64,000 nucleotides of DNA from a virus, in IMG/VR virus record IMGVR_UViG_3300021376_000037, positions 1-64,000 of that record; one strand, given 5' to 3'. Positions 1 to 13,906 of the stretch are shown in pieces. The stretch's first letter is position 1, and each line of letters starts with the position of its first letter. A program made the position numbers and the translations under genes. The notes beneath the pieces are model-generated. The model was not told where the DNA came from. It ran no database searches and worked only from the letters and a program-made list of their open reading frames with translations.

Positions 1-1
1 C

Positions 2-343
2 ATGAAACTGACCGAATGTATTGAGTGTGGCGAGCAGTTCAATCTTTATTCCCCCGAGAAGCGCAAGGCAGGAGGCAAGGCAAATCATTGTCCGCTGTGT
101 GCAGAGGAGACTGCTGTTAAATATGCTGGAGTCTCAGCAGGTGAGGGCAAGATGGGCAGCGTGCAGGTTCTTAAGTTTAGCAGTAACAGTGACCGTGCTG
201 CTTATCTTTCATTCTGGAAGGCAACAAGCGGTATGAACACAGGCAAACAATGTCAGATGCAGTTTCGTGCAAAGGAACCAAACGTTAAGTTCAAGACTGT
301 TGCAACATTTACTGGTAATGTAAACCATAAAGGAAAGGCATAA
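2..343 (+). CDS. hypothetical Zn-ribbon protein
   Basis: 113-aa ORF with CxxC...CxxC; closely coupled to next ORF. Confidence 0.7.
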   Translation: MKLTECIECGEQFNLYSPEKRKAGGKANHCPLCAEETAVKYAGVSAGEGKMGSVQVLKFSSNSDRAAYLSFWKATSGMNTGKQCQMQFRAKEPNVKFKTVATFTGNVNHKGKA

Positions 344-344
344 T

Positions 345-707
345 ATGAATAACTCTCGTAAGGCGTATATCATTCGTGAAAAAAATATGCGGGCGAGCGG
401 CACAGCATTAAAGCACTATAAAAGTTTTATTGGTTCGTTGATGAAAACTACCCGCGATGGTATATATCCAAAAGGTACCTTCTTTCTCATCAAGGATGTA
501 AAGAGATATAAAGTTTTCTTACTTTCTTCGTCCTCGGAGTGGACTGACAGGCAAAGACAAGACACCAGAGTTGGTTATAAGTTTGTCATTGACATTCTTG
601 ATACAAAGGGTAATAAGACTTTGGATAGAGTTAATATCTGTAATGTAAATACGTGTCCAACGAACATCTTACCTTATTCAAAACAAGTCATAAATCTTTA
701 TCAGTAA
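345..707 (+). CDS. hypothetical protein
   Basis: 120-aa ORF starting 1 nt after previous stop. Confidence 0.65.
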   Translation: MNNSRKAYIIREKNMRASGTALKHYKSFIGSLMKTTRDGIYPKGTFFLIKDVKRYKVFLLSSSSEWTDRQRQDTRVGYKFVIDILDTKGNKTLDRVNICNVNTCPTNILPYSKQVINLYQ

Positions 708-727
708 ATAAGAAAGGAGTTGATAAT

Positions 728-829
728 ATGCCACACCCACATAAGAACCGCCCACGCAAGGGACGCAGGAAGATTGGTAGCAAGAAGCGCAGGGCACAGC
801 GTATTAACCGTAAGGGCGGAAAGCAGTAA
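728..829 (+). CDS. 33-aa highly basic peptide (MPHPHKNRPRKGRRKIGSKKRRAQRINRKGGKQ)
   Basis: below ORF-track cut-off; AAGGAG SD at 714-719; fills gap between flanking genes; 15/33 K+R. Confidence 0.75.
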   Translation: MPHPHKNRPRKGRRKIGSKKRRAQRINRKGGKQ

Positions 830-840
830 GGAAATAAACT

Positions 841-1065
841 ATGACCCCCAACAAGTTCAAGCAGGGACAGCTTGTAGAGATTACAACCTCTAATCCGATA
901 ATTGCAGAGCAGCTGAAGAAAAAGAATATAACTGTTATCGGTACTGTGTTGAACTGTAGATATAAGAGCGATGTTTACTTTGTATACTCACCCAACAATC
1001 CCTTCGGTGGAACAGGGTCACATTGGTATACAGGTAATGACTTGCGACCCCTAGTACCTATGTAG
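841..1065 (+). CDS. small hypothetical protein (KOW/SH3-like GQLV family)
   Basis: 74 aa, AAGGA SD; FKQGQLVEI resembles IGDLV paralogs downstream. Confidence 0.6.
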   Translation: MTPNKFKQGQLVEITTSNPIIAEQLKKKNITVIGTVLNCRYKSDVYFVYSPNNPFGGTGSHWYTGNDLRPLVPM

Positions 1066-1120
1066 TAGGGGGGGAGGGGGTCATCAAAAATGTATTACAG
1101 GTATAATATATAAGTAGCCA

Positions 1121-1155
1121 GCCGCCTATATAGAGATATATAGGCGGTTTCTTAT
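1121..1155 (+). terminator. stem-loop, probable intrinsic terminator
   Basis: GCCGCCTATATA-gaga-TATATAGGCGGT followed by TTCTT. Confidence 0.5.
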
Positions 1156-1189
1156 ATGTTCTACTATTGCGGCGGCTAGTTCTTTTGTG

Positions 1190-1218
1190 TTGACGTACCA
1201 CCCCGGCAGGAGTATACT
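1190..1218 (+). promoter_or_regulatory. sigma70-type promoter
   Basis: TTGACG-N17-TATACT upstream of ORF 1245. Confidence 0.75.
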
Positions 1219-1244
1219 AGGAGGGGTCTAAAGAAAAAAAATCT

Positions 1245-1592
1245 ATGCCATTCTATCACTACAGACAAAGGCGCAGCGGAGGTAGTTTTAGAGCACCCGC
1301 CGTTAATGTTTATGTCGAAGCTGATGATATTGAGGAAGCAAACAAAATCTTTGTTACTATCGATGGGTGTTATTTTGACCCAGATTATGAAAAAGATTGT
1401 GAATGCTGTGGAACTAGATGGAATGAACCTTACGATGAAAAAGGTCATTCAAACATCTATGAGGTCTACAGGAAAATAGATAAAGATAATACGGTTTCCC
1501 AAACGTGGGGTTCGCTAAGAGAGTTAACTAATAGCGGCAAAGTAGCAGAATATCTTATCAGGGAAAAGAATGGACAAGTCAAACTATTCTGA
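1245..1592 (+). CDS. conserved phage hypothetical protein
   Basis: SGGSF...YFD...DCECCGTRW motif seen in small phage proteins. Confidence 0.7.
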   Translation: MPFYHYRQRRSGGSFRAPAVNVYVEADDIEEANKIFVTIDGCYFDPDYEKDCECCGTRWNEPYDEKGHSNIYEVYRKIDKDNTVSQTWGSLRELTNSGKVAEYLIREKNGQVKLF

Positions 1593-1800
1593 GGAACAAT
1601 GTGGGGCATACATTGGCAAGCTGTGCCATGACATGAATAACAAGAAGCATATGTTTATGGTGTATGATATGTATTGGAAGATAAACCATAAGGGCGGTAT
1701 GTCTCTAGCTTATAAGTATATTTCCCTGCCGACAGGACGCTTGGGAGAATCACCTGTTAGTCATTTCCACGGTGATACGGCATTTGTAAGGTGGCTTTAA
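1570..1800 (+). CDS. hypothetical protein
   Basis: 76-aa ORF overlapping previous gene end. Confidence 0.5.
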   Translation: MDKSNYSEEQCGAYIGKLCHDMNNKKHMFMVYDMYWKINHKGGMSLAYKYISLPTGRLGESPVSHFHGDTAFVRWL

Positions 1801-2001
1801 CCATATACATATGGTCATTGTGTAAAGCACCTTTACAGGTTGGGGTAAACGGCACCCTGTCGGGTTCACCCGGTCATTCCTCGATCATAGGCACACAGTG
1901 TATCACGTCTTAACGTTTTCTTCAATGAAAGCTTTTGAGGCTCGTAACCTCGCGGAATCATTAAGGAAAAGACAGATCAGACAGGAAAGCGGCCCGCAAA
2001 G

Positions 2002-2040
2002 AGTAGCGATGTTTTACATTATCCCGGCCCCCGTTTTTAG
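2002..2040. repeat. unit-boundary element 1 (TGTAAA-N5-TTTACA-like + CCCGGCCC + T-tract)
   Basis: AGTAGC-gatgt-TTTACA-ttat-CCCGGCCCCCGTTTTTAG; four more copies at 3210, 4388, 5488, 6611. Confidence 0.8.
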
Positions 2041-2093
2041 CCCCCCTGCGGAAAAAGTCAACCCCCGGTGTAAAAGTGTCACCGGCACGTTAC

Positions 2094-2162
2094 GTCACGC
2101 GAGGGTGACACCCGAAAACGGGCAGGTTGCCAAGCGGCGCTAGGTGTGAGAATATATGCGGC
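2094..2162 (+). promoter_or_regulatory. early promoter P1 with GTCAC-N6-GTGAC box, leaderless
   Basis: GTCAC2094-GTGAC2105; TTGCCA2127-N17-GAATAT-N7-ATG2163. Confidence 0.85.
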
Positions 2163-2300
2163 ATGAACGAAATCAACGGAATGACGAAGCGGAAGGTTCT
2201 CACGATTGCCCTAGGGATTGCCATTGTCGAGATAGCTCTTAGGCTTGCGGTCGTCGCCGCTATCGTGGCGGTTGTCAAGTTTGTGTGGGTGTCACTCTAA
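2163..2300 (+). CDS. 45-aa membrane peptide (leaderless)
   Basis: MNEINGMTKRKVLTIALGIAIVEIALRLAVVAAIVAVVKFVWVSL; ATG at predicted +1. Confidence 0.75.
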   Translation: MNEINGMTKRKVLTIALGIAIVEIALRLAVVAAIVAVVKFVWVSL

Positions 2301-2351
2301 AGCGACACCTTGAAAAAGTAGTTTGACCCTAACCCTTTTTTCCTGTAGATT
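2291..2351 (+). promoter_or_regulatory. early promoter P2 (leadered)
   Basis: GTCAC2291-N6-GCGAC; TTGACC2323-N17-TAGATT; leader carries AACGAAAGGCAAA. Confidence 0.8.
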
Positions 2352-2381
2352 ATCCGCACACTCTAACGAAAGGCAAACACA

Positions 2382-3035
2382 ATGAACCTCAACCTCAAGT
2401 GGACCATGGGTAATGCAAAGCTTGTCAAGACCAGCGGTGAGGCTTATCGCGTGCTTGGCTTTGGCATCCCCGCTGATATGTCTTTCGACGGTGGCAATAC
2501 TTGTCCCGGCGCTAATGCTTGTCGCGGTGTCTGCTATGCAAAGCAGGGACGTTATATCATGGCAGGGGTTAAGAACGCTCGGATGCATAACTTCAATGCC
2601 TCCCGTGATGCTGCTTCCTTTGTGTCGTCTGCTATTGCAGACCTGACCCGTTTGGTTAAGCGTTACAACGTGGTTCGCTTGCACGATAGCGGCGATTTTT
2701 ACTCTCAGGAATATCTGAACGCTTGGAAGGCTATTGCTAATGCTTTCCCTAATACTATCTTCTATGCCTACACGAAATCTCTGCACCTTGATATTGAAAG
2801 CGATAAGCCTGCAAACCTTCGCATTATTCAGTCTCTCGGTGGCAAGTATGATGAAAAGATTAATCTCTCGCTCCCTCACTCTCGCATCTTTTCGACTCAC
2901 GCAGACCGTATTGCAGAGGATTATATTGACGGGAATGTGAGTGATATTCCTGCCATTGAAGGCGAGATTAATATTGGTTTGGTTTATCACGGAAACCGGA
3001 AGCTTACGTCTGCACAGAATGAGTTTTTCCGGTAG
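2382..3035 (+). CDS. GP88-family protein (radical-SAM-like Fe-S)
   Basis: GNAKL...CPGANACRGVCYA...RLHDSGDF...YAYTK motifs typical of phage gene product 88 family. Confidence 0.85.
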   Translation: MNLNLKWTMGNAKLVKTSGEAYRVLGFGIPADMSFDGGNTCPGANACRGVCYAKQGRYIMAGVKNARMHNFNASRDAASFVSSAIADLTRLVKRYNVVRLHDSGDFYSQEYLNAWKAIANAFPNTIFYAYTKSLHLDIESDKPANLRIIQSLGGKYDEKINLSLPHSRIFSTHADRIAEDYIDGNVSDIPAIEGEINIGLVYHGNRKLTSAQNEFFR

Positions 3036-3044
3036 TAACACCCG

Positions 3045-3078
3045 CTTGCCTAGTGCTAATCACTAGGCAAGTTTCTTT
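3045..3078 (+). terminator. intrinsic terminator
   Basis: perfect 11-bp stem CTTGCCTAGTG-ctaat-CACTAGGCAAG + TTTCTTT. Confidence 0.7.
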
Positions 3079-3097
3079 AACTAACGAAAGGATAATA

Positions 3098-3208
3098 ATG
3101 ATTGACATGATTAAGGACGATCCGTTTGGTTTCTTTTTGCTGTATCCTATTTTGTTGTGTAACTGTATTGGCTTTGGGATATTACTTTCCGTTGTGCTTA
3201 TGCCGTGA
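3098..3208 (+). CDS. 36-aa membrane peptide
   Basis: AACGAAAGGA SD; MIDMIKDDPFGFFLLYPILLCNCIGFGILLSVVLMP. Confidence 0.65.
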   Translation: MIDMIKDDPFGFFLLYPILLCNCIGFGILLSVVLMP

Positions 3209-3209
3209 G

Positions 3210-3247
3210 TGTAAAGGGGCGTTACAAACCCCGGCCCCCGTTTTTAG
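3210..3247. repeat. unit-boundary element 2
   Basis: TGTAAA-ggggc-GTTACA-aac-CCCGGCCCCCGTTTTTAG right after stop 3208. Confidence 0.8.
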
Positions 3248-3300
3248 CAGCCAGCCCCCGGTTGTCAAGCTCCGCCTGCTCAGTGTCACACCGGGGATGC

Positions 3301-3369
3301 GTCACGCTGCGGTGACAGAAAAAAAGATGCAGGTTGCAAGGGAGCGCGAACCGTGAGAGTATACCCACC
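3301..3369 (+). promoter_or_regulatory. early promoter P3, leaderless
   Basis: GTCAC3301-N6-GTGAC; TTGCAA3334-N17-GAGTAT-N7-ATG3370. Confidence 0.85.
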
Positions 3370-3573
3370 ATGAACAACGAACACGACCCCATGTGCGAGC
3401 GGTGCGGTGAGGAACCCGCGCGGTGGCTTATTGAGCACGCGACTTATGGTGAGGCGGTGTGCATTGGTTGCGTTAATGACCAGCATGAATGGGAAACGCG
3501 GAAGGCGCAGCAGGAGAGGGAGCAAGCTTTTATGTCGATGGTGACGGAACCCATGATGGCTTACGAGGACTGA
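3370..3573 (+). CDS. small Zn-finger protein (leaderless)
   Basis: CERC...CIGC; start at predicted +1. Confidence 0.75.
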   Translation: MNNEHDPMCERCGEEPARWLIEHATYGEAVCIGCVNDQHEWETRKAQQEREQAFMSMVTEPMMAYED

Positions 3574-3640
3574 AACGCACGGGTGACAGTAAAAAAATCG
3601 CTGCTTGCAGATAACCCGAAATCGTGAGAGAATGACCGGC
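3572..3640 (+). promoter_or_regulatory. early promoter P4, leaderless
   Basis: GAAAC3572-N6-GTGAC; TTGCAG3605-N17-GAGAAT-N7-ATG3641. Confidence 0.85.
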
Positions 3641-3874
3641 ATGAACGACCTGATTAAGTGGACGAACGAGGCGACGGCGAATGTGGCGAAGTGGATCGAT
3701 GCGGATCCCTGCTTTTACAATGTGGCGAAGAACTGCCAAAAGGGACGTAACCCTTTCCGTGCCACCCGTAGTTGCATGAAGCTGCTCGGCTTCCACAAGA
3801 CTCCTGATCAGGTTTCCTTTTGGGATCCGAACATTAACATGAAGCAAATTAACTCTTTCATCAAGGATCTCTAA
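3641..3874 (+). CDS. hypothetical protein, distant paralog of 4999-5223
   Basis: WTNEATANVAKWI...TPDQVSFWDPNIN vs WANYETWNVALYI...TPDNVLWHSSILN. Confidence 0.75.
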   Translation: MNDLIKWTNEATANVAKWIDADPCFYNVAKNCQKGRNPFRATRSCMKLLGFHKTPDQVSFWDPNINMKQINSFIKDL

Positions 3875-3942
3875 TGTTTACTTTTATTGTGCTTTGCATT
3901 TACGTCACTATCTTTTCACTCATGCTGGGAGGCAAGAACTAA
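3874..3942 (+). CDS. 22-aa hydrophobic micropeptide
   Basis: TAATG-coupled on both sides; MFTFIVLCIYVTIFSLMLGGKN. Confidence 0.55.
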   Translation: MFTFIVLCIYVTIFSLMLGGKN

Positions 3943-4139
3943 TGGAACTTTCACTCGCTGATTTTCGTAAGGAACTCGGTATCACCACGCAGAGCGACTT
4001 TTGGGATTTGTTGAGCGATTGGAGTGAGGCAGAGAAGGTGCCAGCACTTTGCCGCGAATTGTGTGAGGTTGGACAGGGCGAAAAGTGCCAGCATGGTTGC
4101 CCGTCTATTATTGTTCGCATGATGAGGGGAGACAACTAA
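3942..4139 (+). CDS. hypothetical Cys/His protein
   Basis: VPALC..LCEV....CQHGCPS; GGAGG SD. Confidence 0.7.
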   Translation: MELSLADFRKELGITTQSDFWDLLSDWSEAEKVPALCRELCEVGQGEKCQHGCPSIIVRMMRGDN

Positions 4140-4140
4140 C

Positions 4141-4386
4141 ATGGCTGTTGAAAAGATTGGCAATGGTGGTTTCATGGTCACTGGTGAGCATATCGAGGCT
4201 TATCGCTTGCTGTCTTTGCGTATGGCATTGAAGCTTGGGTGTAGCGGCTTGAAGGGTCGCGTTAATGCTGCTAATATTGTGCGCGATATTCTGACAAACG
4301 CAAACCATACAGCTCCACGAAATAAGGAAAAGCTGCGAATCATGTATGATTATTATTTGCAGCAACAAGGTTTGCTCCAGCTGTAG
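4141..4386 (+). CDS. hypothetical protein
   Basis: 81-aa ORF, GGGGAG SD. Confidence 0.7.
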   Translation: MAVEKIGNGGFMVTGEHIEAYRLLSLRMALKLGCSGLKGRVNAANIVRDILTNANHTAPRNKEKLRIMYDYYLQQQGLLQL

Positions 4387-4387
4387 A

Positions 4388-4428
4388 AGTAAAGGCGCTT
4401 TACAGCGCCCGGCCCCGGTTTTGTCAAG
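4388..4428. repeat. unit-boundary element 3
   Basis: AGTAAA-ggcgc-TTTACA-gcg-CCCGGCCCCGGTTTTGTCAAG after stop 4386. Confidence 0.8.
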
Positions 4429-4429
4429 T

Positions 4430-4498
4430 GTCACCCTATCGTGACACTCCCAAATGTGACAGTTGCCGTTGTCAGACCCCTGCGCTATATTGCTCACC
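4430..4498 (+). promoter_or_regulatory. early promoter P5, leaderless
   Basis: GTCAC4430-N6-GTGAC; TTGCCG4463-N17-TATATT-N7-ATG4499. Confidence 0.85.
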
Positions 4499-4714
4499 AT
4501 GAACGAAGAAAACAGCAAGTGCTTTGAGTGTAACTGTGACATTCCCGCTTTCCGAGGGATGCAGGAAACCCGGATTAGCCGTTGGACCGGTAAGACGTTC
4601 CGCGTTGACCTGTGCGACCCGTGCTGGTTCAAGGACGAACCGGAAGACGAAGAGGACTGTAACGCAAAGGTGACACTCCAAAAAATGCAGGTTGACCGTA
4701 ACCCGAAGGCATGA
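4499..4714 (+). CDS. small Zn-finger protein (leaderless)
   Basis: CFEC...CDPC. Confidence 0.7.
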   Translation: MNEENSKCFECNCDIPAFRGMQETRISRWTGKTFRVDLCDPCWFKDEPEDEEDCNAKVTLQKMQVDRNPKA

Positions 4715-4727
4715 GAGGATACACAAC
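4659..4727 (+). promoter_or_regulatory. early promoter P6, leaderless
   Basis: GTAAC4659-N6-GTGAC; TTGACC4692-N17-GAGGAT-N7-ATG4728. Confidence 0.85.
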
Positions 4728-4982
4728 ATGAACAACGACAACGACAACATCAGCAAGCGGATCGCGGTTCTCAACGCATGGTGGTTCACGGTTGGTCACA
4801 AGCACAGCAGGGACCACAAGCGGGTTGTTAAGCTTGTCAAGCGGGAAATGAAGGCGTGCGGTTTCCCGGTTCCGAAGGGTGGACATATTGCCTTGCAGAA
4901 CGCTTATACGAAGTTTCTTAAGGCTAATAATGCTTGGATTACTTACGGTGTCGGTCCCGTTGGCATCTGCTGCACCTACTAA
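4728..4982 (+). CDS. hypothetical protein (leaderless)
   Basis: ORF starting at predicted +1. Confidence 0.7.
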   Translation: MNNDNDNISKRIAVLNAWWFTVGHKHSRDHKRVVKLVKREMKACGFPVPKGGHIALQNAYTKFLKANNAWITYGVGPVGICCTY

Positions 4983-4998
4983 GGAAAGGGATAACATA

Positions 4999-5223
4999 AT
5001 GGAAAACACCTACAACGGTTGGGCAAACTACGAGACTTGGAACGTCGCGCTGTATATTCAGAATGAGGAACCGCTGTATAGGATTGCAACGCGGTGTGAT
5101 TCTTATTCCGACTTTCTTTTCAAGTCTCACCGCATCCGTGGCGTCACGACTCCTGATAATGTGCTGTGGCACTCTTCCATTCTTAATTGGGACGAACTCA
5201 ACGCTATGATCAGGGATCTCTGA
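4999..5223 (+). CDS. conserved phage protein (YNGWxNYETWNVAL family)
   Basis: TYNGWANYETWNVALYIQNEEPLY; GAAAGGG SD. Confidence 0.8.
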   Translation: MENTYNGWANYETWNVALYIQNEEPLYRIATRCDSYSDFLFKSHRIRGVTTPDNVLWHSSILNWDELNAMIRDL

Positions 5224-5303
5224 TGATTCATAAAAGCAACACAATCTTTTTCCTTCCTTCGCTGTATATTCCTGTTGGCATTATCATTTACCTCTGGAGA
5301 TAA
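5223..5303 (+). CDS. 26-aa hydrophobic micropeptide
   Basis: TGATG-coupled; MIHKSNTIFFLPSLYIPVGIIIYLWR. Confidence 0.5.
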   Translation: MIHKSNTIFFLPSLYIPVGIIIYLWR

Positions 5304-5308
5304 TAAAC

Positions 5309-5485
5309 ATGAATAATCCTTGCATCGACGGTCACAAGTCTCAGGCATACTGGAAGTATGACGCACGCGGCATCCCGCTTGCTAAGGTGTGCAAGCATTG
5401 TGTTGCGTTTAAGCTGTCAAAGTTTCGTCCAGAGGTTATCAATGATGCTAACTATTGGGCAGACGAGGTTATTGATAGCGATTAA
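5309..5485 (+). CDS. 58-aa phage protein (YDARGIPLxxVCxxC motif)
   Basis: below ORF-track cut-off; GGAG SD; MNNPCIDGHKSQAYWKYDARGIPLAKVCKHC... Confidence 0.7.
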   Translation: MNNPCIDGHKSQAYWKYDARGIPLAKVCKHCVAFKLSKFRPEVINDANYWADEVIDSD

Positions 5486-5487
5486 AA

Positions 5488-5524
5488 TGTAAGGAGTTTT
5501 TACTTGCCCCGGCCCGCGTTTTAG
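5488..5524. repeat. unit-boundary element 4
   Basis: TGTAAG-gagtt-TTTACT-tgc-CCCGGCCCGCGTTTTAG after stop 5485. Confidence 0.8.
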
Positions 5525-5577
5525 CGGGTACAAGGGGAAAAGCAAGGGGAAGTTTCCGTGTGTCACGCTGCGGTTGC

Positions 5578-5646
5578 GTCACCTGAATGTGACACCCGAA
5601 AACAGGTTGCTTGCAGGCAAGGGCAAGGTGTGAGAATATATGTCCC
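5578..5646 (+). promoter_or_regulatory. early promoter P7 (no ATG at +1)
   Basis: GTCAC5578-N6-GTGAC; TTGCAG5611-N17-GAATAT. Confidence 0.75.
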
Positions 5647-5677
5647 GTTGAAGCAAGCGGGGACGGCAAGCAGGACT

Positions 5678-5740
5678 GAAACCCAGCGGTGACAGGTAGA
5701 AAAAAGGTAGCTTGACGGTTCAGCGGTTTTCCTGTAGATT
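5678..5740 (+). promoter_or_regulatory. early promoter P8 (leadered)
   Basis: GAAAC5678-N6-GTGAC; TTGACG5712-N17-TAGATT; leader AACGAAAGGCAAA as in P2. Confidence 0.8.
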
Positions 5741-5774
5741 ATCCCCACACTGAAACGAAAGGCAAAAACAAAAC

Positions 5775-5996
5775 GTGATTACCCGTCAGTTTGGCATTGT
5801 GATTGAGAATCAGAAGGATTGGACGCTGGACGCGCTGCTGAATCAGTCTTGCATGAACGCAACGCATTGCGTCAACGCAGAGGATCCGCACGGTGAGCCT
5901 GCTCGCGTTTGGGCAGAAGGTGAGGGTCACGCCGAGCGTATCGCGGCGTTTCTGAAGTCTTACGGTTACACCATCATTGACACGGAGGAGGTTTGA
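5775..5996 (+). CDS. hypothetical protein
   Basis: GTG start after GAAAGG leader. Confidence 0.7.
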   Translation: MITRQFGIVIENQKDWTLDALLNQSCMNATHCVNAEDPHGEPARVWAEGEGHAERIAAFLKSYGYTIIDTEEV

Positions 5997-5998
5997 TT

Positions 5999-6145
5999 AT
6001 GACGCCTGTTCTTGGACAGACTGTGCATGGTTTCAGCGGTGACCCTTTCATTTTCCTTGCAATCAATGACATTGATGATGTTGTGGTGCGTTGTCCTGTC
6101 ACGTTGAAGCTTTACACTTTCCCCCGTTTCTTTTTCGACTTCTAA
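5999..6145 (+). CDS. 48-aa hypothetical protein
   Basis: GGAGG SD; MTPVLGQTVHGFSGDPFIFLAIND... Confidence 0.6.
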   Translation: MTPVLGQTVHGFSGDPFIFLAINDIDDVVVRCPVTLKLYTFPRFFFDF

Positions 6146-6156
6146 AGGAAAACATA

Positions 6157-6420
6157 ATGTCCCGTGAACTTCGCAATAACGATACTGGCAAGGTTGTGAC
6201 CGTTTATGGTTGGGCTATCACCCGCCACGCTTGGGAGTATTTTTTCACTTCCTCCGCTCCATCTGCTGACGATATTGTGGAAGCGATTGTGTATGGGCAC
6301 GAGGTTGAGCGTGGGGATGTTTCCCTGTCAGAGATTCGACCTTATGTGTTGTCTCACACTGTTGACCTTGTGGATCTTGCTCCTCCCCCTAACTGGCATT
6401 GGGTAGACAATGAAAACTGA
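6157..6420 (+). CDS. hypothetical protein
   Basis: AAGGA SD; WEYF...VYGHEVERGDVSLSEI resembles DUF2958-like proteins. Confidence 0.7.
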   Translation: MSRELRNNDTGKVVTVYGWAITRHAWEYFFTSSAPSADDIVEAIVYGHEVERGDVSLSEIRPYVLSHTVDLVDLAPPPNWHWVDNEN

Positions 6421-6610
6421 AATCGAAATCATGGAAGATATTTCGTGGTTGCTGTATGAGGCAAATATGCAACCCAATCCCAGACATTATGCAATGGGCA
6501 AACATGGAACGGTGTACGCTTACATTCCAAACAATGGCATAGATAAGCGTCCAGATAAGGCAGCGATTGCCGATCGCATCCGATACATGGCGGACAAGGT
6601 TCTGCGATAA
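6410..6610 (+). CDS. hypothetical protein
   Basis: 66-aa overlapping ORF ending at boundary element 5. Confidence 0.6.
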   Translation: MKTEIEIMEDISWLLYEANMQPNPRHYAMGKHGTVYAYIPNNGIDKRPDKAAIADRIRYMADKVLR

Positions 6611-6652
6611 TGTAAAGGGGTTTGACAGACCCCGGCCCCGCTTTTTTCAAGT
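6611..6652. repeat. unit-boundary element 5
   Basis: TGTAAA-ggggt-TTGACA-gac-CCCGGCCCCGCTTTTTTCAAG after stop 6610. Confidence 0.8.
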
Positions 6653-6722
6653 GTCACCCTGCTGTGACGTAACGCGAAAGTTACAGTTGCCGTTTTCCCT
6701 GTCCTCACCTATATTACTCACC
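6653..6722 (+). promoter_or_regulatory. early promoter P9, leaderless
   Basis: GTCAC6653-N6-GTGAC plus second GTAAC-N6-GTTAC; TTGCCG6687-N17-TATATT-N7-ATG6723. Confidence 0.85.
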
Positions 6723-7046
6723 ATGAACAACACGAACAAGCGGACGGTCTATGTGGTTGGCAATGGCAAGCGGTTCCTTAAGGAAAAGCTGAACCTTGGT
6801 TCGTTCAAGGATGCCATCATTTACGATAGCGAATATGGTGCCGAGAAGGCAATGTATAAGATGATTAATAACCATGCCGACACAAGGGCACATCTCGCTG
6901 AGGTACTTAAGCGTGGTTATGTTGTTGAATACATCTATAACGATAGCGAATATGGGCAGAATCACATTGCCAACATGAAGAAATATATTCGCGGGCAGAA
7001 TCCCAAGGGACTGAAGGTTATGAAGGTGACTGTCACGCTTGGGTGA
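6723..7046 (+). CDS. hypothetical protein (leaderless)
   Basis: start at predicted +1; internal DSEYG repeat. Confidence 0.75.
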   Translation: MNNTNKRTVYVVGNGKRFLKEKLNLGSFKDAIIYDSEYGAEKAMYKMINNHADTRAHLAEVLKRGYVVEYIYNDSEYGQNHIANMKKYIRGQNPKGLKVMKVTVTLG

Positions 7047-7099
7047 CACTAGAAAAAAGATTCCTTGACCTTAACCCGAACCTGTGAGATACTAACGCC
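7032..7099 (+). promoter_or_regulatory. early promoter P10, leaderless
   Basis: GTCAC7032-N6-GTGAC; TTGACC7065-N17-GATACT-N6-ATG7100. Confidence 0.85.
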
Positions 7100-7507
7100 A
7101 TGACCAACGAAAACCCCTTGAACCTGTTTCCCTGCAAGGATGCTGTCAGCGACGGTTGCCCTAACACCACTGTTGCGCCTGATACCTACTGCTGTGATTG
7201 CCACCTTTTCTATGAGGAGATTGCCGAGTCTCAAAAGCTGCTGAATGATGAAAGCTGGAAGTCTCCTGCTGATTCTATTGCTGCCGTTGATGCTGCGCGG
7301 AGCGTTCTCCCGCATTTCGAGATTGTCGATATTCCTGAGCCGCAGCCTGAGCCTGTTAAGCCTGACCTTGACGGTGTTTGCTACACGATGAACGCTGCCG
7401 AGGTTGATTGTCAGGCTGCGCTGTTTGAGATTGCCGCTGTGCTGGCAAAGTATCAGGACACGCTTAAGCAGATTGACACGGTTCTCGCTTCCTACGAGGT
7501 TCACTAA
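7100..7507 (+). CDS. hypothetical acidic Cys-rich protein (leaderless)
   Basis: 135-aa ORF at predicted +1. Confidence 0.75.
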   Translation: MTNENPLNLFPCKDAVSDGCPNTTVAPDTYCCDCHLFYEEIAESQKLLNDESWKSPADSIAAVDAARSVLPHFEIVDIPEPQPEPVKPDLDGVCYTMNAAEVDCQAALFEIAAVLAKYQDTLKQIDTVLASYEVH

Positions 7508-7508
7508 T

Positions 7509-7697
7509 ATGGGCAAGGCAAAGGGTGTGAATATCCAAATCACGCAGCAGCAGGCAAATACAATGGTTGCCGCAATGGATGCTGTAAAGGAAGCGTTGGA
7601 CCGTACAATGCCAAAGGGCAAACTGTATCAGGAGAACCTTTATCAAGCGCAGAAGCTTATCACAGAACAGATTATGGGAAAGGGAAAACTAAACTAA
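7509..7697 (+). CDS. hypothetical protein
   Basis: GAGG SD; coupled ORF. Confidence 0.6.
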   Translation: MGKAKGVNIQITQQQANTMVAAMDAVKEALDRTMPKGKLYQENLYQAQKLITEQIMGKGKLN

Positions 7698-7889
7698 TGC
7701 GCGAACGCAAGGTTCTCAGCGGTGAGGAGATAGACGCAATGGCTGAAAAGAATAGGCGCATCCTTATGACGCATTATAGCGTGGACGGAAAGCTGCCAGA
7801 TGACTTAGCCAATATTGCAGACCTTACCCGTATGTTGCTGTATAATCATAACTGTGCTATCCTTAAGGAAAGGGAAAACTAAACTAATG
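7677..7889. repeat. 23-nt direct repeat flanking ORF 7697-7882
   Basis: GGAAAGGGAAAACTAAACTAATG at 7677-7699 and 7867-7889. Confidence 0.85.
7697..7882 (+). CDS. hypothetical protein
   Basis: 61 aa; start lies in repeat. Confidence 0.6.
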   Translation: MRERKVLSGEEIDAMAEKNRRILMTHYSVDGKLPDDLANIADLTRMLLYNHNCAILKEREN

Positions 7890-8051
7890 GACCATCTTAA
7901 ATATTTGCGTGAGTTAGACGAGAAGTGGGAGAAGCATCGTAAGGTGTTGCGTGAGATGGGGTGGGAGGATGATAAGATTGAGGAGTATCTAGACAAGGCA
8001 AAGACTCATATTCTCGCACACCAATCGCTGACGAAGCTGGGGGTACAATAA
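7887..8051 (+). CDS. hypothetical protein
   Basis: start lies in second repeat copy. Confidence 0.6.
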   Translation: MDHLKYLRELDEKWEKHRKVLREMGWEDDKIEEYLDKAKTHILAHQSLTKLGVQ

Positions 8052-8176
8052 TGAATAAGATAAAGGATATCGATTTGCAGGAGCTGAACTATATTGTGCA
8101 TGCAACTGGTATGGCAATCTTCTTTGTGGTTGGCACAGCTGCCCTGCTTTATTTTGGTTTGGCTGTGGGGTACTAA
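8051..8176 (+). CDS. 41-aa membrane peptide
   Basis: TAATG-coupled both sides; C-terminal TM GMAIFFVVGTAALLYFGLAVGY. Confidence 0.6.
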   Translation: MNKIKDIDLQELNYIVHATGMAIFFVVGTAALLYFGLAVGY

Positions 8177-8538
8177 TGAGAAAAGAACTACACCAAGCAA
8201 AGCTAACCCTTAGCAGACTGAATGACCTGTGGAGTTTCACCGGAAAGGAAATGACATATAAGGTTCCTCTCCTGTTGCGGTTAGACCCTGATGATCCTGT
8301 TGAGGCATTGCTCTGTGTCGTTACTGCTTATGGTTGTGTTGCTGCTCATGCTGGATTGGCAATCGAGGATGGGATTAAACCAGACGAGACATGGGATAGA
8401 TTGTTCAAGCAGGTAGGCCAAGCCGTCATGTTTGACTTGCCCAGCAGCCTTAAATACTTTCAAAAGAAAGAGTTTGAAAAGAAAAGCGCAAGGGCATTCA
8501 CCATCGGCTGGGGGGAGGACTCCCCCTCCCCCCCGTAG
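8176..8538 (+). CDS. hypothetical protein
   Basis: 120-aa ORF. Confidence 0.6.
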   Translation: MRKELHQAKLTLSRLNDLWSFTGKEMTYKVPLLLRLDPDDPVEALLCVVTAYGCVAAHAGLAIEDGIKPDETWDRLFKQVGQAVMFDLPSSLKYFQKKEFEKKSARAFTIGWGEDSPSPP

Positions 8539-8706
8539 TCCCTTTCAAAACACGGAAAGTATGTCTGCCATAGAATTAATGTATGCCATAAAACGCGCTA
8601 TGGTCGTGAATAAATTCCGGACCAAAAATGGGAATTTTTCGTTTTTTATATAGGGGTTGAAATGTCTAAAAAATGCGGTATACTAAAAAAATCCTCGGAG
8701 AAAAAA

Positions 8707-8937
8707 ATGGAAAATCTTCAAATTGGTGACCTTGTTATGTGTAGAGAAAAAATATATCCCGATATGGATAAAAGTGTGCATAACATGAAGTTAGTTATTG
8801 GTTGGATAACTGCAAAAGATTTAAACGGCTATTTCATTCATTGGAGCGATAAGGATTGTGCAGGGTTTGTTAATTGCGAAAGCGCATATTTAACACGAAA
8901 TCTTTTCCTAGAAAAGAGAAAGGAAATGGGAATCTAA
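8707..8937 (+). CDS. small IGDLV-family protein
   Basis: QIGDLVMC...IGWI...IHWSD; GGAG SD; paralog of next gene. Confidence 0.7.
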   Translation: MENLQIGDLVMCREKIYPDMDKSVHNMKLVIGWITAKDLNGYFIHWSDKDCAGFVNCESAYLTRNLFLEKRKEMGI

Positions 8938-9194
8938 TGAAAATAGCTCCAAAATACAAGATTGGCGACCTGCTCATGTGCAAGTCATATATTAATCCAT
9001 ATGACGATGAAGACAGGGAGGACAACATTCGACCAATTATTGGTTGGATTGTCGAGGTAAGACCTTATATTTATTATCAAAATAAGCTTATTACATATTT
9101 GGTTCAATGGAGCGACCAAGACAAAGAAATGCTTATCAGCGAAGAAGATGCAGTAAAGTTACGCGATTACTATGAGGAAATCCGTAGCAAATAG
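8937..9194 (+). CDS. small IGDLV-family protein
   Basis: KIGDLLMC...IGWI...VQWSD. Confidence 0.7.
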   Translation: MKIAPKYKIGDLLMCKSYINPYDDEDREDNIRPIIGWIVEVRPYIYYQNKLITYLVQWSDQDKEMLISEEDAVKLRDYYEEIRSK

Positions 9195-9297
9195 CAAATT
9201 GTCATTCCTGTTACTAATTAGTATAGAGGTAAAGCGTTAAAATGTTTTAGAAAGGCCGTAGATTTGATTATAAACAGTTTGTTGGGAAAACAATTGA

Positions 9298-9513
9298 GTG
9301 GCAGAGGCAGACGACAAGGACGTTCCTATTGGCTCCCTAGTGCGTATACATGTACGCAGTGTAAACTCATATCTTGGAATAGTATTAGAAAGAGTCTTTC
9401 ACGATAAAGCCGGTTCCATTTCTTACACGGTATACATAATGGATTTAGACACGCAAATACTCATGTTTCCTTATGAATTAGAGGTTTTAAGTGGAAAACA
9501 AGAATCTACATAA
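9298..9513 (+). CDS. small IGxLV-family protein
   Basis: VPIGSLV...GIVL...MFPYELEVLSGK. Confidence 0.65.
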   Translation: MAEADDKDVPIGSLVRIHVRSVNSYLGIVLERVFHDKAGSISYTVYIMDLDTQILMFPYELEVLSGKQEST

Positions 9514-9736
9514 ACCTATTCCAATCGGTGCGCTCGTCATGGACCCATCCACAAAACGCCTTGCAATGATTCTTGATTATGTTCCAACTAGTGAGTGGGG
9601 TAGAGTTGACATGGACAATCCCAACCGAGCAGGAATAATTTATGGAATGTTATTTGTTGACGGGGTTGGACCACCAAAAACTTTCCGTTATGGGTATGAA
9701 ATAAAAGTATTGAGCGGAAAATATGATGACCCGTGA
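9491..9736 (+). CDS. small IGxLV-family protein
   Basis: IPIGALV...YGYEIKVLSGK. Confidence 0.65.
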   Translation: MENKNLHKPIPIGALVMDPSTKRLAMILDYVPTSEWGRVDMDNPNRAGIIYGMLFVDGVGPPKTFRYGYEIKVLSGKYDDP

Positions 9737-9926
9737 GATGTTTCCTGATTTTAAAGTTGGTGATCTTGTACAAATTAGGATAGACAATGGTGATGGTGGG
9801 CTAGCAATAGTCCTAGAAGACTTGCAATACATAGATGAACAATGTTTTTATCTTGTTTATTCTATGCGGGAAAATAAAAACATTCCTGTGTTCCCTTATG
9901 AAATAATATTAGTCCCGAGAGACTAA
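9723..9926 (+). CDS. small VGDLV-family protein
   Basis: FKVGDLV...LAIVL...VFPYEI. Confidence 0.65.
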   Translation: MMTREMFPDFKVGDLVQIRIDNGDGGLAIVLEDLQYIDEQCFYLVYSMRENKNIPVFPYEIILVPRD

Positions 9927-9934
9927 TTATATTC

Positions 9935-10171
9935 ATGGGCTACAAAAAATCTGTTTTGGACAGTCTAAATATTCCAGTTGGTGCGCTTGTAAGAGTCGAT
10001 ATCATCAAGCGTCGGGAGGATTTAGCTGTTGTTGTAGATAAAAATCTTGGCTTACTTGAAAACTGTTGGTATATGGTTCATTCCCTTAATAGTGGGAAAG
10101 AATACATGGCGTACCCTCATGAATTACTTTGGTTGAATAAATCTTTCGCTGAAAGCGATGAAAACCTCTAA
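9935..10171 (+). CDS. small VGxLV-family protein
   Basis: IPVGALV...LAVVV...AYPHEL. Confidence 0.65.
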   Translation: MGYKKSVLDSLNIPVGALVRVDIIKRREDLAVVVDKNLGLLENCWYMVHSLNSGKEYMAYPHELLWLNKSFAESDENL

Positions 10172-10208
10172 TTATTATAAACGCCTGTATATTTCTAGAG
10201 GATTTTTC

Positions 10209-10742
10209 ATGAAATCTGTATCTCCTGTAAACAAATACTATAATTTGGTTGCCGAAATAGAAGAAGAATTTCCCGGTTTTCGTGTTATCGAAAAAGAGGG
10301 AAACCGCTTCATGCTCTTTCTTTATCACCTTTCACTTATGCGTTTTTGGAATCCCCATTTCATGACACGGTTTATAACAACCGCATTTGGTTGCGTCTAT
10401 ATGCCCCGTGACCTGATTGGAACCGACATAGGAGCGGATGTTCTGAGACATGAACGTGTCCATCTACGTCAAGCAGCAAGGTGGGGAATGCTTTTCTATT
10501 TATCTTATTTACTTTTGCCCCTGCCTGCTTTTTTCACCTTTCGTGCATATTGGGAGTTTGAAGCTTATTGTGAAAGTCTGCGTTGCGAAAAGGAACGTTA
10601 TGGAGTGGTTTATAGCGAAACATTCAATTATTTTGTGGACTTATTTGTTGGTCCTGCCTATTTATGGATGTGCCCATTCCGGGGATATGTGGAAAAAAAA
10701 TTTTTAGATTTCTTGAAAAATGAAGATATAAGGTTGGTATAA
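10209..10742 (+). CDS. putative zinc metallopeptidase (HExxH)
   Basis: VLRHERVHLRQ and downstream EFEAY; hydrophobic segments. Confidence 0.65.
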   Translation: MKSVSPVNKYYNLVAEIEEEFPGFRVIEKEGNRFMLFLYHLSLMRFWNPHFMTRFITTAFGCVYMPRDLIGTDIGADVLRHERVHLRQAARWGMLFYLSYLLLPLPAFFTFRAYWEFEAYCESLRCEKERYGVVYSETFNYFVDLFVGPAYLWMCPFRGYVEKKFLDFLKNEDIRLV

Positions 10743-10748
10743 TATATT

Positions 10749-11501
10749 ATGATCAAAGTACGTATACTTGGTGAGGTGGCAGCAACAAGACAAAACCCTG
10801 ATGCCGGTGGAACCGTGGCAGTTCCTATCGGTAGCCCCGAGGTAGCAAATTATTTAAAAGCTAAGATAGGCGATATTAGCGATCCTAATAAATACGATAC
10901 GTTACATTATGCTGCTGGCGGGCAGGAGGACATGCCAGTTAAGTTCAAAGTGAAACCTCCACAGGATCTTAAAGCAAGACTAGGGCAAATACAAAAAAAT
11001 TTAAATATTATAAAATTAACTTTTTTGAAAAAAACTGCTGCTACTACCCAAGATGCTGAAACAGTTGCCGATGATGAAGCAAAAATCTCTGTTGATATAC
11101 AAAAGCTAAATGATCTTAGAAAACAAAAAGGTAACCGTAAAAGTCAATATGAAGTTGGAAAAAACGCCTTTTTAGCTTTTCAAAATGGTCTACAAGAATT
11201 AATAAATTATTATATTACAAAAGAAAAAGAATATTTTGGTGATGTGCCGCAATGGTCTGAAATGGAAGAATCACAAAGTCCAACTGACTTTAAGCCACTA
11301 GTGGTAAATCAATTATTAAAACATGGTGGTTATGATGGCAAAAAAATTGTTAATTTTATTCATAGTATTGCATATTCCGCTTTAGCAGCTGAATTTAAAC
11401 AACAAAGACTTTTGGAACAATATTATAATAAAAAACAAATAAAACTAAAAGAAATAATAAATCAAGTATTGCAAGAAATGAAACAGGAAAATGAAAAATA
11501 G
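10749..11501 (+). CDS. hypothetical protein (possible internal head protein)
   Basis: 250 aa; C-terminal KLKEIINQVLQE motif. Confidence 0.65.
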   Translation: MIKVRILGEVAATRQNPDAGGTVAVPIGSPEVANYLKAKIGDISDPNKYDTLHYAAGGQEDMPVKFKVKPPQDLKARLGQIQKNLNIIKLTFLKKTAATTQDAETVADDEAKISVDIQKLNDLRKQKGNRKSQYEVGKNAFLAFQNGLQELINYYITKEKEYFGDVPQWSEMEESQSPTDFKPLVVNQLLKHGGYDGKKIVNFIHSIAYSALAAEFKQQRLLEQYYNKKQIKLKEIINQVLQEMKQENEK

Positions 11502-11567
11502 TTTTAAAGCTTTTATATTATTTTGTATGATATTACCATTTTGGATAGCGGAAAGGATAACTAGAAA

Positions 11568-11849
11568 ATGAAATTAACAAAACAGTTTTTGCGCGGTTTG
11601 ATTCGTGAAAGTTTGCAGCAAATGTCTGAGGAAGAAAAAGAATATACTGGTGGTATGTCAGACGAAGAAATAAAAGCACAGCGAAGACGTTTACAAGCTA
11701 AAGCCGATGCTGTCACACCAGAAGAAATGATTAATGCTGGTATTAGAAGTATTATACATGATCGTGAAGGCAATCATAGTGGAGAATGGGGTTTATCTGA
11801 TTATGTTAAAAATCAATTAAAATATGCTGGCGGTGATATAAAAAAATAA
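11568..11849 (+). CDS. hypothetical protein, possibly extended to 11962 by -1 frameshift
   Basis: MKLTKQFLRGLIRESL start; stop follows A7 run; -1 frame open to 11962. Confidence 0.7.
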   Translation: MKLTKQFLRGLIRESLQQMSEEEKEYTGGMSDEEIKAQRRRLQAKADAVTPEEMINAGIRSIIHDREGNHSGEWGLSDYVKNQLKYAGGDIKK

Positions 11850-11994
11850 AAAGTGTGGCAGATGCTATGAAGGCTAATGCGTATAGTGGGGAAAAAAATC
11901 AAAAAGATGTAGACCGCGCCGTGCAAATTATAGCTAAACATATTGATAAATTAAGAACATAGTAAAATAATTTAAGCTTCTTGGTAAATAAATT

Positions 11995-12019
11995 ACCCGC
12001 TATCAAAGGCGGGTTTTTT
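11995..12019 (+). terminator. intrinsic terminator
   Basis: ACCCGC-N8-GCGGGT + TTTTT. Confidence 0.75.
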
Positions 12020-12041
12020 GTTTATAAACTATTTATATATT

Positions 12042-12245
12042 ATGCCTCTTCGTAGACCTTGTTATGTAAAAGTTGGCGATTTTGTACGTACCCGTGGGGA
12101 TTTAGATATCTATGGGTATGTTACTTTTATTGATGCAAATAACGAAACAGGAGATTATTACGTAGAAATCATATATGATGAAGATGCAGACCCGTTATAT
12201 TTCTATGATGATCAGCTGGAAGTATTAAGCGTAATAAAAGAATAA
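12042..12245 (+). CDS. small VGDFV-family protein
   Basis: VKVGDFV...YGYV...QLEVLS; ACTATTTA motif just upstream. Confidence 0.65.
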   Translation: MPLRRPCYVKVGDFVRTRGDLDIYGYVTFIDANNETGDYYVEIIYDEDADPLYFYDDQLEVLSVIKE

Positions 12246-12472
12246 TGGAACATCAAATAGGCGATTTGCTGCTTGCACAAACTGTTGACGGTGGTATAAT
12301 GTTTGGACTAATAACAAACATTGTAGAATCGGAGCAAGACACATTTTTAAATTTGTATACAGTAACTTGGTTTAAAGGAGAGGATATAAAGGATACAAGA
12401 GATTATACGTATAATAACATTATTAGACTTAAAATGAACTTAAGCGACTATTTTAATGAAGATAAGGTATAA
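12245..12472 (+). CDS. small IGDLL-family protein
   Basis: HQIGDLL...FGLI...YTVTWF. Confidence 0.65.
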   Translation: MEHQIGDLLLAQTVDGGIMFGLITNIVESEQDTFLNLYTVTWFKGEDIKDTRDYTYNNIIRLKMNLSDYFNEDKV

Positions 12473-12474
12473 AC

Positions 12475-12648
12475 ATGAATTCTGAACAATTACAAGGTTT
12501 AATCAAATTATCAAAGCATTTTATAACAGTTTGCGTCACCGTATTATCTCTTTTTGTTATTTATAAAGTAGCTACGTCCTATTGGGTAAATCCACCAATA
12601 AAACAGGAGCCGCGTTATAAAAATACATTACAAAGAGACATAAATTAA
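12475..12648 (+). CDS. 57-aa single-TM protein
   Basis: below ORF-track cut-off; TM FITVCVTVLSLFVIYKVA; abuts SLT gene. Confidence 0.55.
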   Translation: MNSEQLQGLIKLSKHFITVCVTVLSLFVIYKVATSYWVNPPIKQEPRYKNTLQRDIN

Positions 12649-12649
12649 T

Positions 12650-13282: not shown

Positions 13283-13598
13283 TAACATAAAGATAGCAAT
13301 AGTGGCACTATGTCTGATTAGTAACGGAATATTTGCAGCATTTCTTTCCAAATCTATCCGTTCTGGAAATACCGAATGGTATTGGTCATATTTAACAAGT
13401 TTTATTAGTGCTTCTATATTTGCTTATCAACTAAAAGAAAGAATGTTGCCACTAACAGTAACTTCTGTATTCCAAACGTTTTTCTTTCATGCAGCTTGGT
13501 ATGCGACAGCATTTTTTATTATGTCTAACGAATTACATGGACATAAATTAATAGGACTTTTGCTTGCTTTTTGTGGTATGATAGTAATGAGTCTATAA
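13275..13598 (+). CDS. small 4-TM membrane protein (SMR/DMT-like)
   Basis: 107 aa, four hydrophobic segments, C-terminal KLIGLLLAFCGMIVM. Confidence 0.65.
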   Translation: MNNNIKIAIVALCLISNGIFAAFLSKSIRSGNTEWYWSYLTSFISASIFAYQLKERMLPLTVTSVFQTFFFHAAWYATAFFIMSNELHGHKLIGLLLAFCGMIVMSL

Positions 13599-13607
13599 GG
13601 AGGCTTT

Positions 13608-13862: not shown

Positions 13863-13867
13863 ACTAG

Positions 13868-13896
13868 TTGACTGTTAGTTCAAATAAATGTATGAT
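13868..13896 (+). promoter_or_regulatory. sigma70-type promoter
   Basis: TTGACT-N17-TATGAT with extended TG. Confidence 0.7.
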
Positions 13897-13906
13897 TGGC
13901 AGATAA

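Follow-up and report, generated by a model that had tools for sequence, protein, structure and literature searches.

Early host-takeover regions of virulent phages such as T7 (promoters A1–A3), T5, and SPO1 carry multiple strong promoters for the host RNA polymerase. T4-type phages carry mobile regulatory cassettes termed promoter early stem-loops (PeSLs), in which a stem-loop, often polyG followed by polyC, lies upstream of the promoter (Arbiol, Comeau, Krisch 2010, PMC2839356; Comeau et al. 2014, PMC4122927). PeSLs flank orphan open reading frames (ORFans), terminate transcription, and mediate insertions and deletions (indels) as well as mini-circles, and both the terminator activity and the mini-circles were shown by experiment (PMC2839356; PMC4122927). 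Here, a window of 64,000 nucleotides (nt), i.e., positions 1 to 64,000 of the IMG/VR virus record IMGVR_UViG_3300021376_000037, was analysed with respect to a short element, CCCGGCCC, which recurs five times in the early region. The source is an uncultured, unclassified lake-water virus, whose whole record spans 76,997 bp (CheckV completeness estimate 42%). On balance, and with modest confidence, the element is best explained as a stem-loop/C-tract module at the upstream end of a PeSL-like early cassette that has been duplicated, and it probably serves as a weak attenuator or insulator.

Like the PeSLs, the locus has an intergenic motif that recurs and combines a putative G-run/C-run stem-loop with an A/T tract and a strong early promoter of the sigma70 type, and its copies cluster in a variable region made up of small orphan genes. 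Repeated sigma70-like early promoters with an upstream A/T-rich tract, as expected of PeSLs, were found, and relatives differ by orphan genes with two flanking cassettes versus one chimeric cassette. Unlike T4-type PeSLs, to which they have no sequence relation, the cassettes of the window add GTCAC-N6-GTGAC operators at −61.5, most of them start predicted leaderless mRNAs instead of using a Shine-Dalgarno sequence, the putative stem-loop is weak and set apart from the T-tract, and the break points observed are confined to the promoter/leader part, outside the stem-loop part. The phage itself gave no T4 core-gene matches in PHROG and Pfam searches and was not assignable to the T4-type myoviruses. 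The cassettes thus appear PeSL-like in how they are laid out and in how relatives differ from each other, and they are PeSL members neither by sequence nor by host-phage group. As in the early regions of T7, T5, and SPO1, dense strong sigma70-type promoters stand ahead of many small genes in one direction; in contrast to those phages, the promoters are part of a duplicated cassette whose copies have operators and an upstream element in common, and the region has a guanine-plus-cytosine (GC) content of 49% in a genome of 30% GC.

The five-copy element and the promoter cassettes behind it

In agreement with the earlier note on this DNA, CCCGGCCC was located at 2023, 3230, 4408, 5508, and 6631, always on the + strand, where 0.14 copies were expected (no shuffled sequence reached five); no further copy was found on either strand of the whole 76,997-bp record. 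A repeat finder embedded the element in a longer repeat of 27–36 nt, comprising four 36-nt copies (family D4; 3210–3245, 4388–4423, 5488–5523, 6611–6646) that are 72–83% identical, and a 27-nt family (D7) that brings in 2011–2037. The repeat consensus consists of TGTAAAG-GGG-n-TTACA, (C)CCCGGCCCC, two variable bases, and T4–T6, with the T-tracts at 2033–2037, 3241–3245, 4420–4423, 5519–5522, and 6642–6647. The individual copies are as follows.

Boundary element #1, 2011–2037, + strand: right palindrome half TTTTACA, CCCGGCCCCC, T5.
Boundary element #2, 3210–3245, + strand: TGTAAAGGGGCGTTACA, CCCCGGCCCCC, T5; 1 nt past the stop codon 3206–3208.
Second C-rich copy, 3251–3270, + strand: CCAGCCCCCGG-TTGTCAAG, 32 nt upstream of the distal GTGTCAC box; this form is also conserved in the sister.
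Boundary element #3 (subtype B), 4388–4423, + strand: GTAAAG-GCG-CTTTAC / GGCGC...GCGCC stem-loop, CCCGGCCCCGG, T4; 1–2 nt past the stop codon 4384–4386.
Boundary element #4, 5488–5523, + strand: degenerate palindrome TGTAAGGAG...TTTAC, CCCCGGCCCGCG, T4; T-tract inside the loop of a CCCGC/GCGGG hairpin.
Boundary element #5 (subtype B), 6611–6646, + strand: begins directly past the stop codon 6608–6610; polymorphic in lake populations.

Elements #2–#5 thus follow within 0–2 nt of the last stop codons of the preceding units (ending at 3208, 4386, 5485, and 6610), as previously noted for four cases, and element #1 is preceded by about 210 nt of non-coding DNA. The palindrome, which the earlier note had attributed to every copy, is good in #2 and #3; it is bulged in #5, degenerate in #4, and reduced to its right half in #1.

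Behind every element, exactly two sigma70-type promoters with GTGACA/TGTCAC boxes (Pa and Pb) were found, again as described before. The ten promoters have −35 motifs of the TTGAC/TTGC type, extended or consensus-like −10 motifs, and A-tracts, and form the repeat families D1–D6.

P1a (subtype A), 2076–2165, + strand: GTGTCAC-N11-GTCAC-N6-GTGACA, −35 TTGCCA, extended −10 TGaGAATAT, leaderless ATG at 2163 (membrane ORF of 45 amino acids, aa).
P1b, 2288–2384, + strand: box, A-tract, TTGACC-17-TAGATT, shared leader ...AACGAAAGGCAAA..., 217-aa GP88-family gene.
P2a (subtype A), 3283–3372, + strand: operator centre at −61.5 (3308.5 vs 3370), leaderless ATG at 3370 (67-aa zinc-ribbon-like ORF).
P2b, 3580–3643, + strand: GGTGACA box, A7, −35 CTTGCA, −10 GAGAAT, leaderless ATG at 3641 (77-aa DUF7249 protein).
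P3a (subtype B), 4428–4501, + strand: TGTCAC-N6-GTGACA, GTGACA, TTGCCG-17-TATATT, leaderless ATG at 4499.
P3b, 4667–4730, + strand: leaderless ATG at 4728.
P4a (subtype A), 5560–5649, + strand: no ORF behind it (ATG-TCC-CGT-TGA).
P4b, 5686–5777, + strand: TTGACG-17-TAGATT, shared leader, 73-aa gene.
P5a (subtype B), 6651–6725, + strand: leaderless ATG at 6723 (107-aa protein).
P5b, 7029–7102, + strand: ATG at 7100; operator overlaps the C-terminal codons of the 107-aa protein.

Alignment of the five copies on the downstream start codon separated two cassette subtypes. In subtype A (#1, #2, #4), CCCGGCCC lies 140, 140, and 139 nt before the start codon and is followed by a diverged spacer of 52–53 nt (distance to GTGTCAC: 53, 53, and 52 nt), GTGTCAC-N11-GTCAC-N6-GTGACA, an A-tract, a −35 of TTGC(C/A)A, and an extended −10 of TGaGA(A/G)TAT. 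In subtype B (#3, #5), CCCGGCCC lies 91 and 92 nt before the start codon, with T-tract-(G/T)TCAAG-TGTCAC-N6-GTGAC immediately 3′ of it and then TTGCCG-17-TATATT; both copies are about 80% identical across about 110 nt (D10/D11). Since the −10 of both subtypes ends 7 nt before ATGAAC, the early mRNAs are predicted to be leaderless, and seven early genes have such starts 6–7 nt behind a −10 (2163, 3370, 3641, 4499, 4728, 6723, and 7100, the last being ATGACC). The Pb promoters (GGTGACA, A6–7, TTGAC-like −35) lie at the 3′ end of the short leaderless gene, and each nested unit is composed of Pa, the short leaderless gene, Pb, and one to four small genes. Each Pa cassette has CCCGGCCC at its upstream edge, so that a unit is to be understood as the stretch from one Pa cassette to the next.

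Some further observations were made on the cassettes and their surroundings. Lake contigs of other strains also have the −10 directly before start codons (loose ends at 4497 and 5321). Four different genes have a common promoter and a leader of roughly 30 nt (...CACACT-AACGAAAGGCAAA-ACA-ATG), two in the window (2288–2384, 5686–5777) and two in the sister contig L073 (12088–12200, 12462–12575); this promoter-leader is a second, Shine-Dalgarno-bearing cassette type. The orphan promoter P4a lacks an ORF in the sister as well (L073, about 11967–12110), and because its transcript region (roughly 45 nt; 5560–5690) can form a GTCCCG...CGGGGAC hairpin, P4a may specify a small RNA or be the remnant of a deleted leaderless gene. 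The last eight residues of the 107-aa protein, MKVTVTLG, are invariant in four homologues that are otherwise 61–70% identical, and their codons (7022–7048) overlap the P5b operator GTGAC-TGTCAC-N6-GTGACA. Homologues of the 107-aa protein with 70% identity are encoded on two ENA contigs. Upstream of element #1, the non-coding stretch 1917–1969 is 83% conserved in the sister (L073, 9774–9826) and absent from the near-identical contig L101. A sixth copy of the palindrome stands alone in front of this stretch, with a G-rich tract and no C-run downstream.

Palindrome copy, perfect, 1821–1837, + strand: TGTAAAG-CAC-CTTTACA; 20 nt past the stop codon of the ORF 1570–1800.

The same junctions in relatives

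The window was compared with a sister lineage (G001, an 85.7-kb IMG/VR contig), the near-identical contig L101, and contigs of four lake runs; population variation was assessed from assembled contigs. Protein-guided searches with three early proteins in IMG/VR and one in a metagenome collection led only to a single sister lineage, a contig nearly identical to the window, and a short piece that matches the sister contig at 100% identity. The 217-aa protein of the sister is 94% identical to its counterpart in the window. A scan of IMG/VR for CCCCGGCCCCNGTTTT returned 66 matches, all single and unrelated; the three-box promoter pattern matched the sister contig only; and a looser operator pattern gave mostly chance matches plus G002, which ends before the small-gene region.

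CCCGGCCC is absent from the sister. Its junctions hold a repeated module of their own, CCAGCCCCCGG-GTCAAG, which is positionally equivalent and different in sequence, in the order strong hairpin, AATATT-GCGCGC-AATATT-like palindrome, CCAGCC(C/G)CC(GG), GTCAAG, 32–33 nt, and GTGTCAC. Window element #2 is accompanied by the sister-type motif as its second copy (3251–3270), and #3 and #5 align directly with it (CCCGGCCCCGGTTTTGTCAAG vs CCCAGCCCCCGGTTTGTCAAG). The C-rich arm of the sister is complementary to an upstream G-rich arm, in one copy both arms have changed so as to match (CAGCCGCC with GGCGGCTG), and the sister junctions fold better than shuffled sequences (z = −1.5 to −5.4); a T-tract is missing in three of the four junctions examined. 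Among the operator matches in G000, G001, and G002, a C-tract with GTCAAG stands before free-standing promoters in 11 out of 22 (a few of which overlap at one promoter) and before none of the gene-embedded Pb promoters. When junctions are compared, paralogues from one genome resemble each other no less than positional orthologues from different genomes do, a likeness that, for such short sequences, would fit concerted evolution. Within the population of the window, copy #5 varies: the changes G6620A and G6635C, giving CCCCGCCCCC, occur in L101 and in three of the four lake runs, and the 8-mer of this copy reads CCCGCCCC in three of the four lake runs, in the same phage population. In L101, a different module (TGTAAAG...CCAGCCCCCAG) takes the place of element #1.

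Break points between relatives and metagenome variants (insertions, deletions, and replacements) fall inside promoter/leader modules, and the exchanged pieces are single genes with their promoter, not whole 1.15-kb units. A 99-aa ORFan of the sister is situated between two Pb cassettes where the window has one (P4b), and window positions 5732–5771 match both of them. The window, in turn, has two promoters, P1a and P1b, with the 45-aa ORF between them, at a place where only one promoter precedes the 217-aa gene of the sister. L101 is 99.6% identical to the window from 2097 on and unrelated upstream, with single-nucleotide polymorphisms clustered at 2101–2141, inside P1a. In lake contigs, other promoters are attached straight to the ATGs at 3641, 4499, and 5321. 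Joints from 2989 to 5677 and from 3826 to 4758 suggest strains that skip #2 and #3, weakly so because the flanks are short (30 and 51 letters), and a backward joint in the assembled contigs from 5706 to 3640, of the kind that an excised mini-circle would give, is explained equally well by a paralogous promoter in a strain whose genes are ordered differently. A window-specific segment of 1,125 bp that holds #3 (3875–4998) is absent from the sister, and its ends are gene junctions, not cassettes. The earlier proposal of a cassette shuffling like that of the T4 PeSLs therefore holds in kind, with indels between relatives bounded by promoter/leader modules; it does not extend to the CCCGGCCC module or to an exchange of whole units. 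Tandem duplication of whole units was rejected as the origin of the array: the DUF7249 proteins (77 aa and 74 aa) are the sole paralogues found in different units, which are therefore not simple tandem duplicates.

A second cluster of the same operator/promoter type is present in the sister (L103, 6700–11400, corresponding to G001 34.7–39.4 kb; also L220), in a region that lies upstream of the start of the window contig. It drives large genes at spacings of about 150–1500 bp, the products of which look, by eye, like an AAA-type ATPase and a large protein with a von Willebrand/metallopeptidase-like domain.

Readings of the element and of its spacing

Under the favoured explanation, a cassette of about 140–190 bp would have been multiplied five times in this lineage by duplication or gene conversion. 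The G-run in the centre of the AT-rich palindrome would pair with the first C-run to give a short stem-loop, followed by unpaired GGCCCC and the T-tract, the operator boxes (GTCAC-N6-GTGAC centred at −61.5), a sigma70-type promoter with extended −10, and a leaderless ATGAAC start, so that each cassette would open a nested transcription unit with two promoters. The stem-loop/C-tract might act as a weak terminator, attenuator, or insulator shielding the next promoter from read-through, the repeated cassettes might supply homology for PeSL-like gene shuffling, and the even 1.15-kb spacing would have no function as a length and would follow from the similar content of the units in this one lineage. 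In favour of this explanation, elements #2, #3, and #5 can form short G-run/C-run stems with co-varying arms (GGGG/CCCC, GGCGC/GCGCC, and GGGGT/ACCCC, respectively). The two subtypes with their set distances to the start codon, the different sister repeat with complementary arms at equivalent junctions, the C-tract with GTCAAG ahead of free-standing promoters, the break points inside cassettes, and the lack of a conserved spacing count for it as well. Several results weigh against this explanation. Folded as RNA, the five elements of the window do no better than shuffled sequences (z = +0.4 to −1.2), and none of the five passed a + strand scan for intrinsic terminators because stem and T-tract are 8–9 nt apart. 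CCCGGCCC is exact in all five copies, so the sequence is kept better than the structure, in keeping with a protein site. In the relatives and metagenome contigs, none of the recombination break points coincides with CCCGGCCC, the comparison with relatives covers a single sister lineage, and the evenness of the spacing, which is statistically unusual in this lineage, receives no positive explanation. Finally, a canonical terminator is already present 5′ of #2, which suggests that the element is part of the promoter that follows it rather than of the operon that precedes it.

Canonical intrinsic terminator, 3044–3078, + strand: stem of 12 bp (z = −5.3); lies within unit 1, 140 nt upstream of boundary #2.

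This terminator also bears on the simplest account, in which each element would be an efficient factor-independent terminator closing an early operon, with nothing more needed to explain repeat and position. The elements share with canonical Rho-independent terminators the position at the operon 3′ end (0–2 nt past the last stop codon of four units), a GC-rich stem-loop (in #2, #3, and #5), and a nearby T-tract (T4–T6), and no other terminator-like site on the + strand closes units 2–4. However, the stem does not adjoin the T-tract: the distance of 8–9 nt in #2, #3, and #5 exceeds the 0–2 nt expected of the U-tract of an intrinsic terminator, #1 has no stem, and in #4 the T-tract is inside the loop. 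The stability of the elements does not surpass that of shuffled sequence, the T-tract is mostly missing from the sister junctions, and the true terminators of the window, which took the top ranks in the + strand scan (1120–1149 and 3044–3072), look quite unlike the elements. We consider this account improbable. The main rival, which is likelier than the terminator account and still unlikely, is a sequence-specific protein site, bound by a dimer on TGTAAAG-N3-CTTTACA and/or by a factor on the C-tract, and serving as a far-upstream activator or repressor site or as an insulator of early timing; the sister would have a co-evolved, different site (AATATT-GCGCGC-AATATT). It would account for an 8-mer without a single change across five copies whose possible stems differ and fold no better than shuffles, for the separate, real terminator upstream of #2, for a palindromic module of its own in each lineage at the same place, and for the association of the module with free-standing promoters, even between two that are 150 bp apart in the sister. 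The fixed distance to the boxes in subtype A despite a diverged spacer points the same way, although recent duplication alone would also give fixed distances. On the other hand, the analysis brought up no candidate for the binding protein, three copies of the palindrome are imperfect (#4 degenerate, #1 with one half only, and #5 with a bulge), the population is polymorphic for CCCGGCCC at #5, the sister lacks it, and the Pb promoters use the same operator type without the element.

The spacings between the elements are 1207, 1178, 1100, and 1123 bp (mean 1152), and the earlier observation that they are more even than expected was reproduced: the coefficient of variation (CV) is 0.037, three uniform internal break points give such evenness with P = 9e-5, and among the 560 choices of three internal gene junctions, the observed one alone is this even, all of these tests being post hoc with naive nulls. 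A functional spacing, in which the elements would phase a looping or bridging scaffold or a stepwise, transcription-coupled DNA entry, could draw on these values (P about 1e-4) and on the similar mean in the sister (1169 vs 1152 bp). However, the individual spacings of the sister are 927, 1175, and 1405 bp (CV 0.17), its units have 1, 2, 3, and 2 promoters, and CCCGGCCC is missing. Promoters of this type also drive the large genes of the sister, at irregular spacing, metagenome contigs hint at strains skipping #2 and #3 (weakly, given short flanks), and the early region is internal in the 85.7-kb sister contig, away from any visible end. The even 1.15-kb spacing is thus not conserved in the closest relative, and the length-constraint or scaffold reading put forward in the earlier note is not supported for this reason; variable spacing without unit-wise exchange is largely what that note had named as speaking against its proposal. 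Such a functional spacing is the least probable of the explanations weighed here. A selected 1.15-kb phasing, in which a protein on the palindrome/C-tract of successive Pa cassettes would bridge them into a looped early nucleoprotein that times or insulates the five units, with the sister alike but for its own palindrome and looser spacing, is hardly more credible.

Other candidate functions were rejected. A Rho-dependent rut site (about 80 nt, C-rich and G-poor) was inconsistent across the five copies: C minus G reaches 0.15 in 78-nt windows at #1 and #2 and not at #3–#5, and the C-over-G peak at 6654–6731 is downstream of #5, over P5a, with comparable peaks within genes. Mini-ORFs across CCCGGCCC have no frames or stops common to the five copies, as judged by reading the sequence. 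The reverse of TTGTCAAG contains TTGACA, as in an antisense promoter, yet no acceptable −10 is available. A template-strand G-quadruplex would find four G-runs at #1 only, the motif is too variable for a Chi-like site (CCCGGCCC, CCAGCCCCC, CCCGCCCC), and an NtcA-like GTA-N8-TAC site is contradicted by the spacing of N9. Rfam had nothing at the elements; its two matches within 1000–8000 lie elsewhere and below gathering scores.

Surrounding features and implications

The record encodes a baseplate-wedge protein, giant tail-region proteins, and a glycan-synthesis block, and has six tRNA matches in Rfam. In the PHROG and Pfam searches, the large proteins had no T4-like family matches except for one baseplate-wedge PHROG match. 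The genes of the early region are all small and on the + strand, the region is variable and ORFan-rich, and its only family matches are the GP88-family protein and two DUF7249 proteins. The GC content is ~49% at 2–8 kb and ~30% from about 9 kb onward. An assembly chimera behind this jump was rejected because the sister genome (L073, about 1–15000; L103) shows it as a GC-rich block of roughly 17 kb between low-GC flanks, and because L101 and lake-run contigs cover the early region of the window; contigs from other samples carry the same junctions. Avoidance of an AT-binding silencer or a match to host expression would be guesses as to its origin.

The DUF7249 paralogues (3641–3874 and 4999–5223) are each followed by a tiny membrane ORF. 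Positions 5007–5053 of the second gene, around the YNGWANYETWNV motif, have a 47-bp match of 91% identity in T4-like cyanophages. Contig depth in the lake runs at 4801–5100 is several hundred to more than 1000, compared with about 2–20 in most other bins, and presumably stems from other abundant phages. Further downstream, a perfect 23-nt direct repeat, GGAAAGGGAAAACTAAACTAATG, occurs at 7677–7699 and 7867–7889, 190 nt apart, at the stop/start junctions of two consecutive small genes.

The striking periodicity of the elements is not conserved, and no new mechanism is opened by these results. If the favoured explanation is true, PeSL-like composite cassettes occur outside the T4-type phages in an unrelated sequence form, one that adds operator palindromes and leaderless starts and evolves in concert within each genome. 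This would support the recombination of regulatory cassettes as a general route of small-early-gene turnover in large virulent phages.

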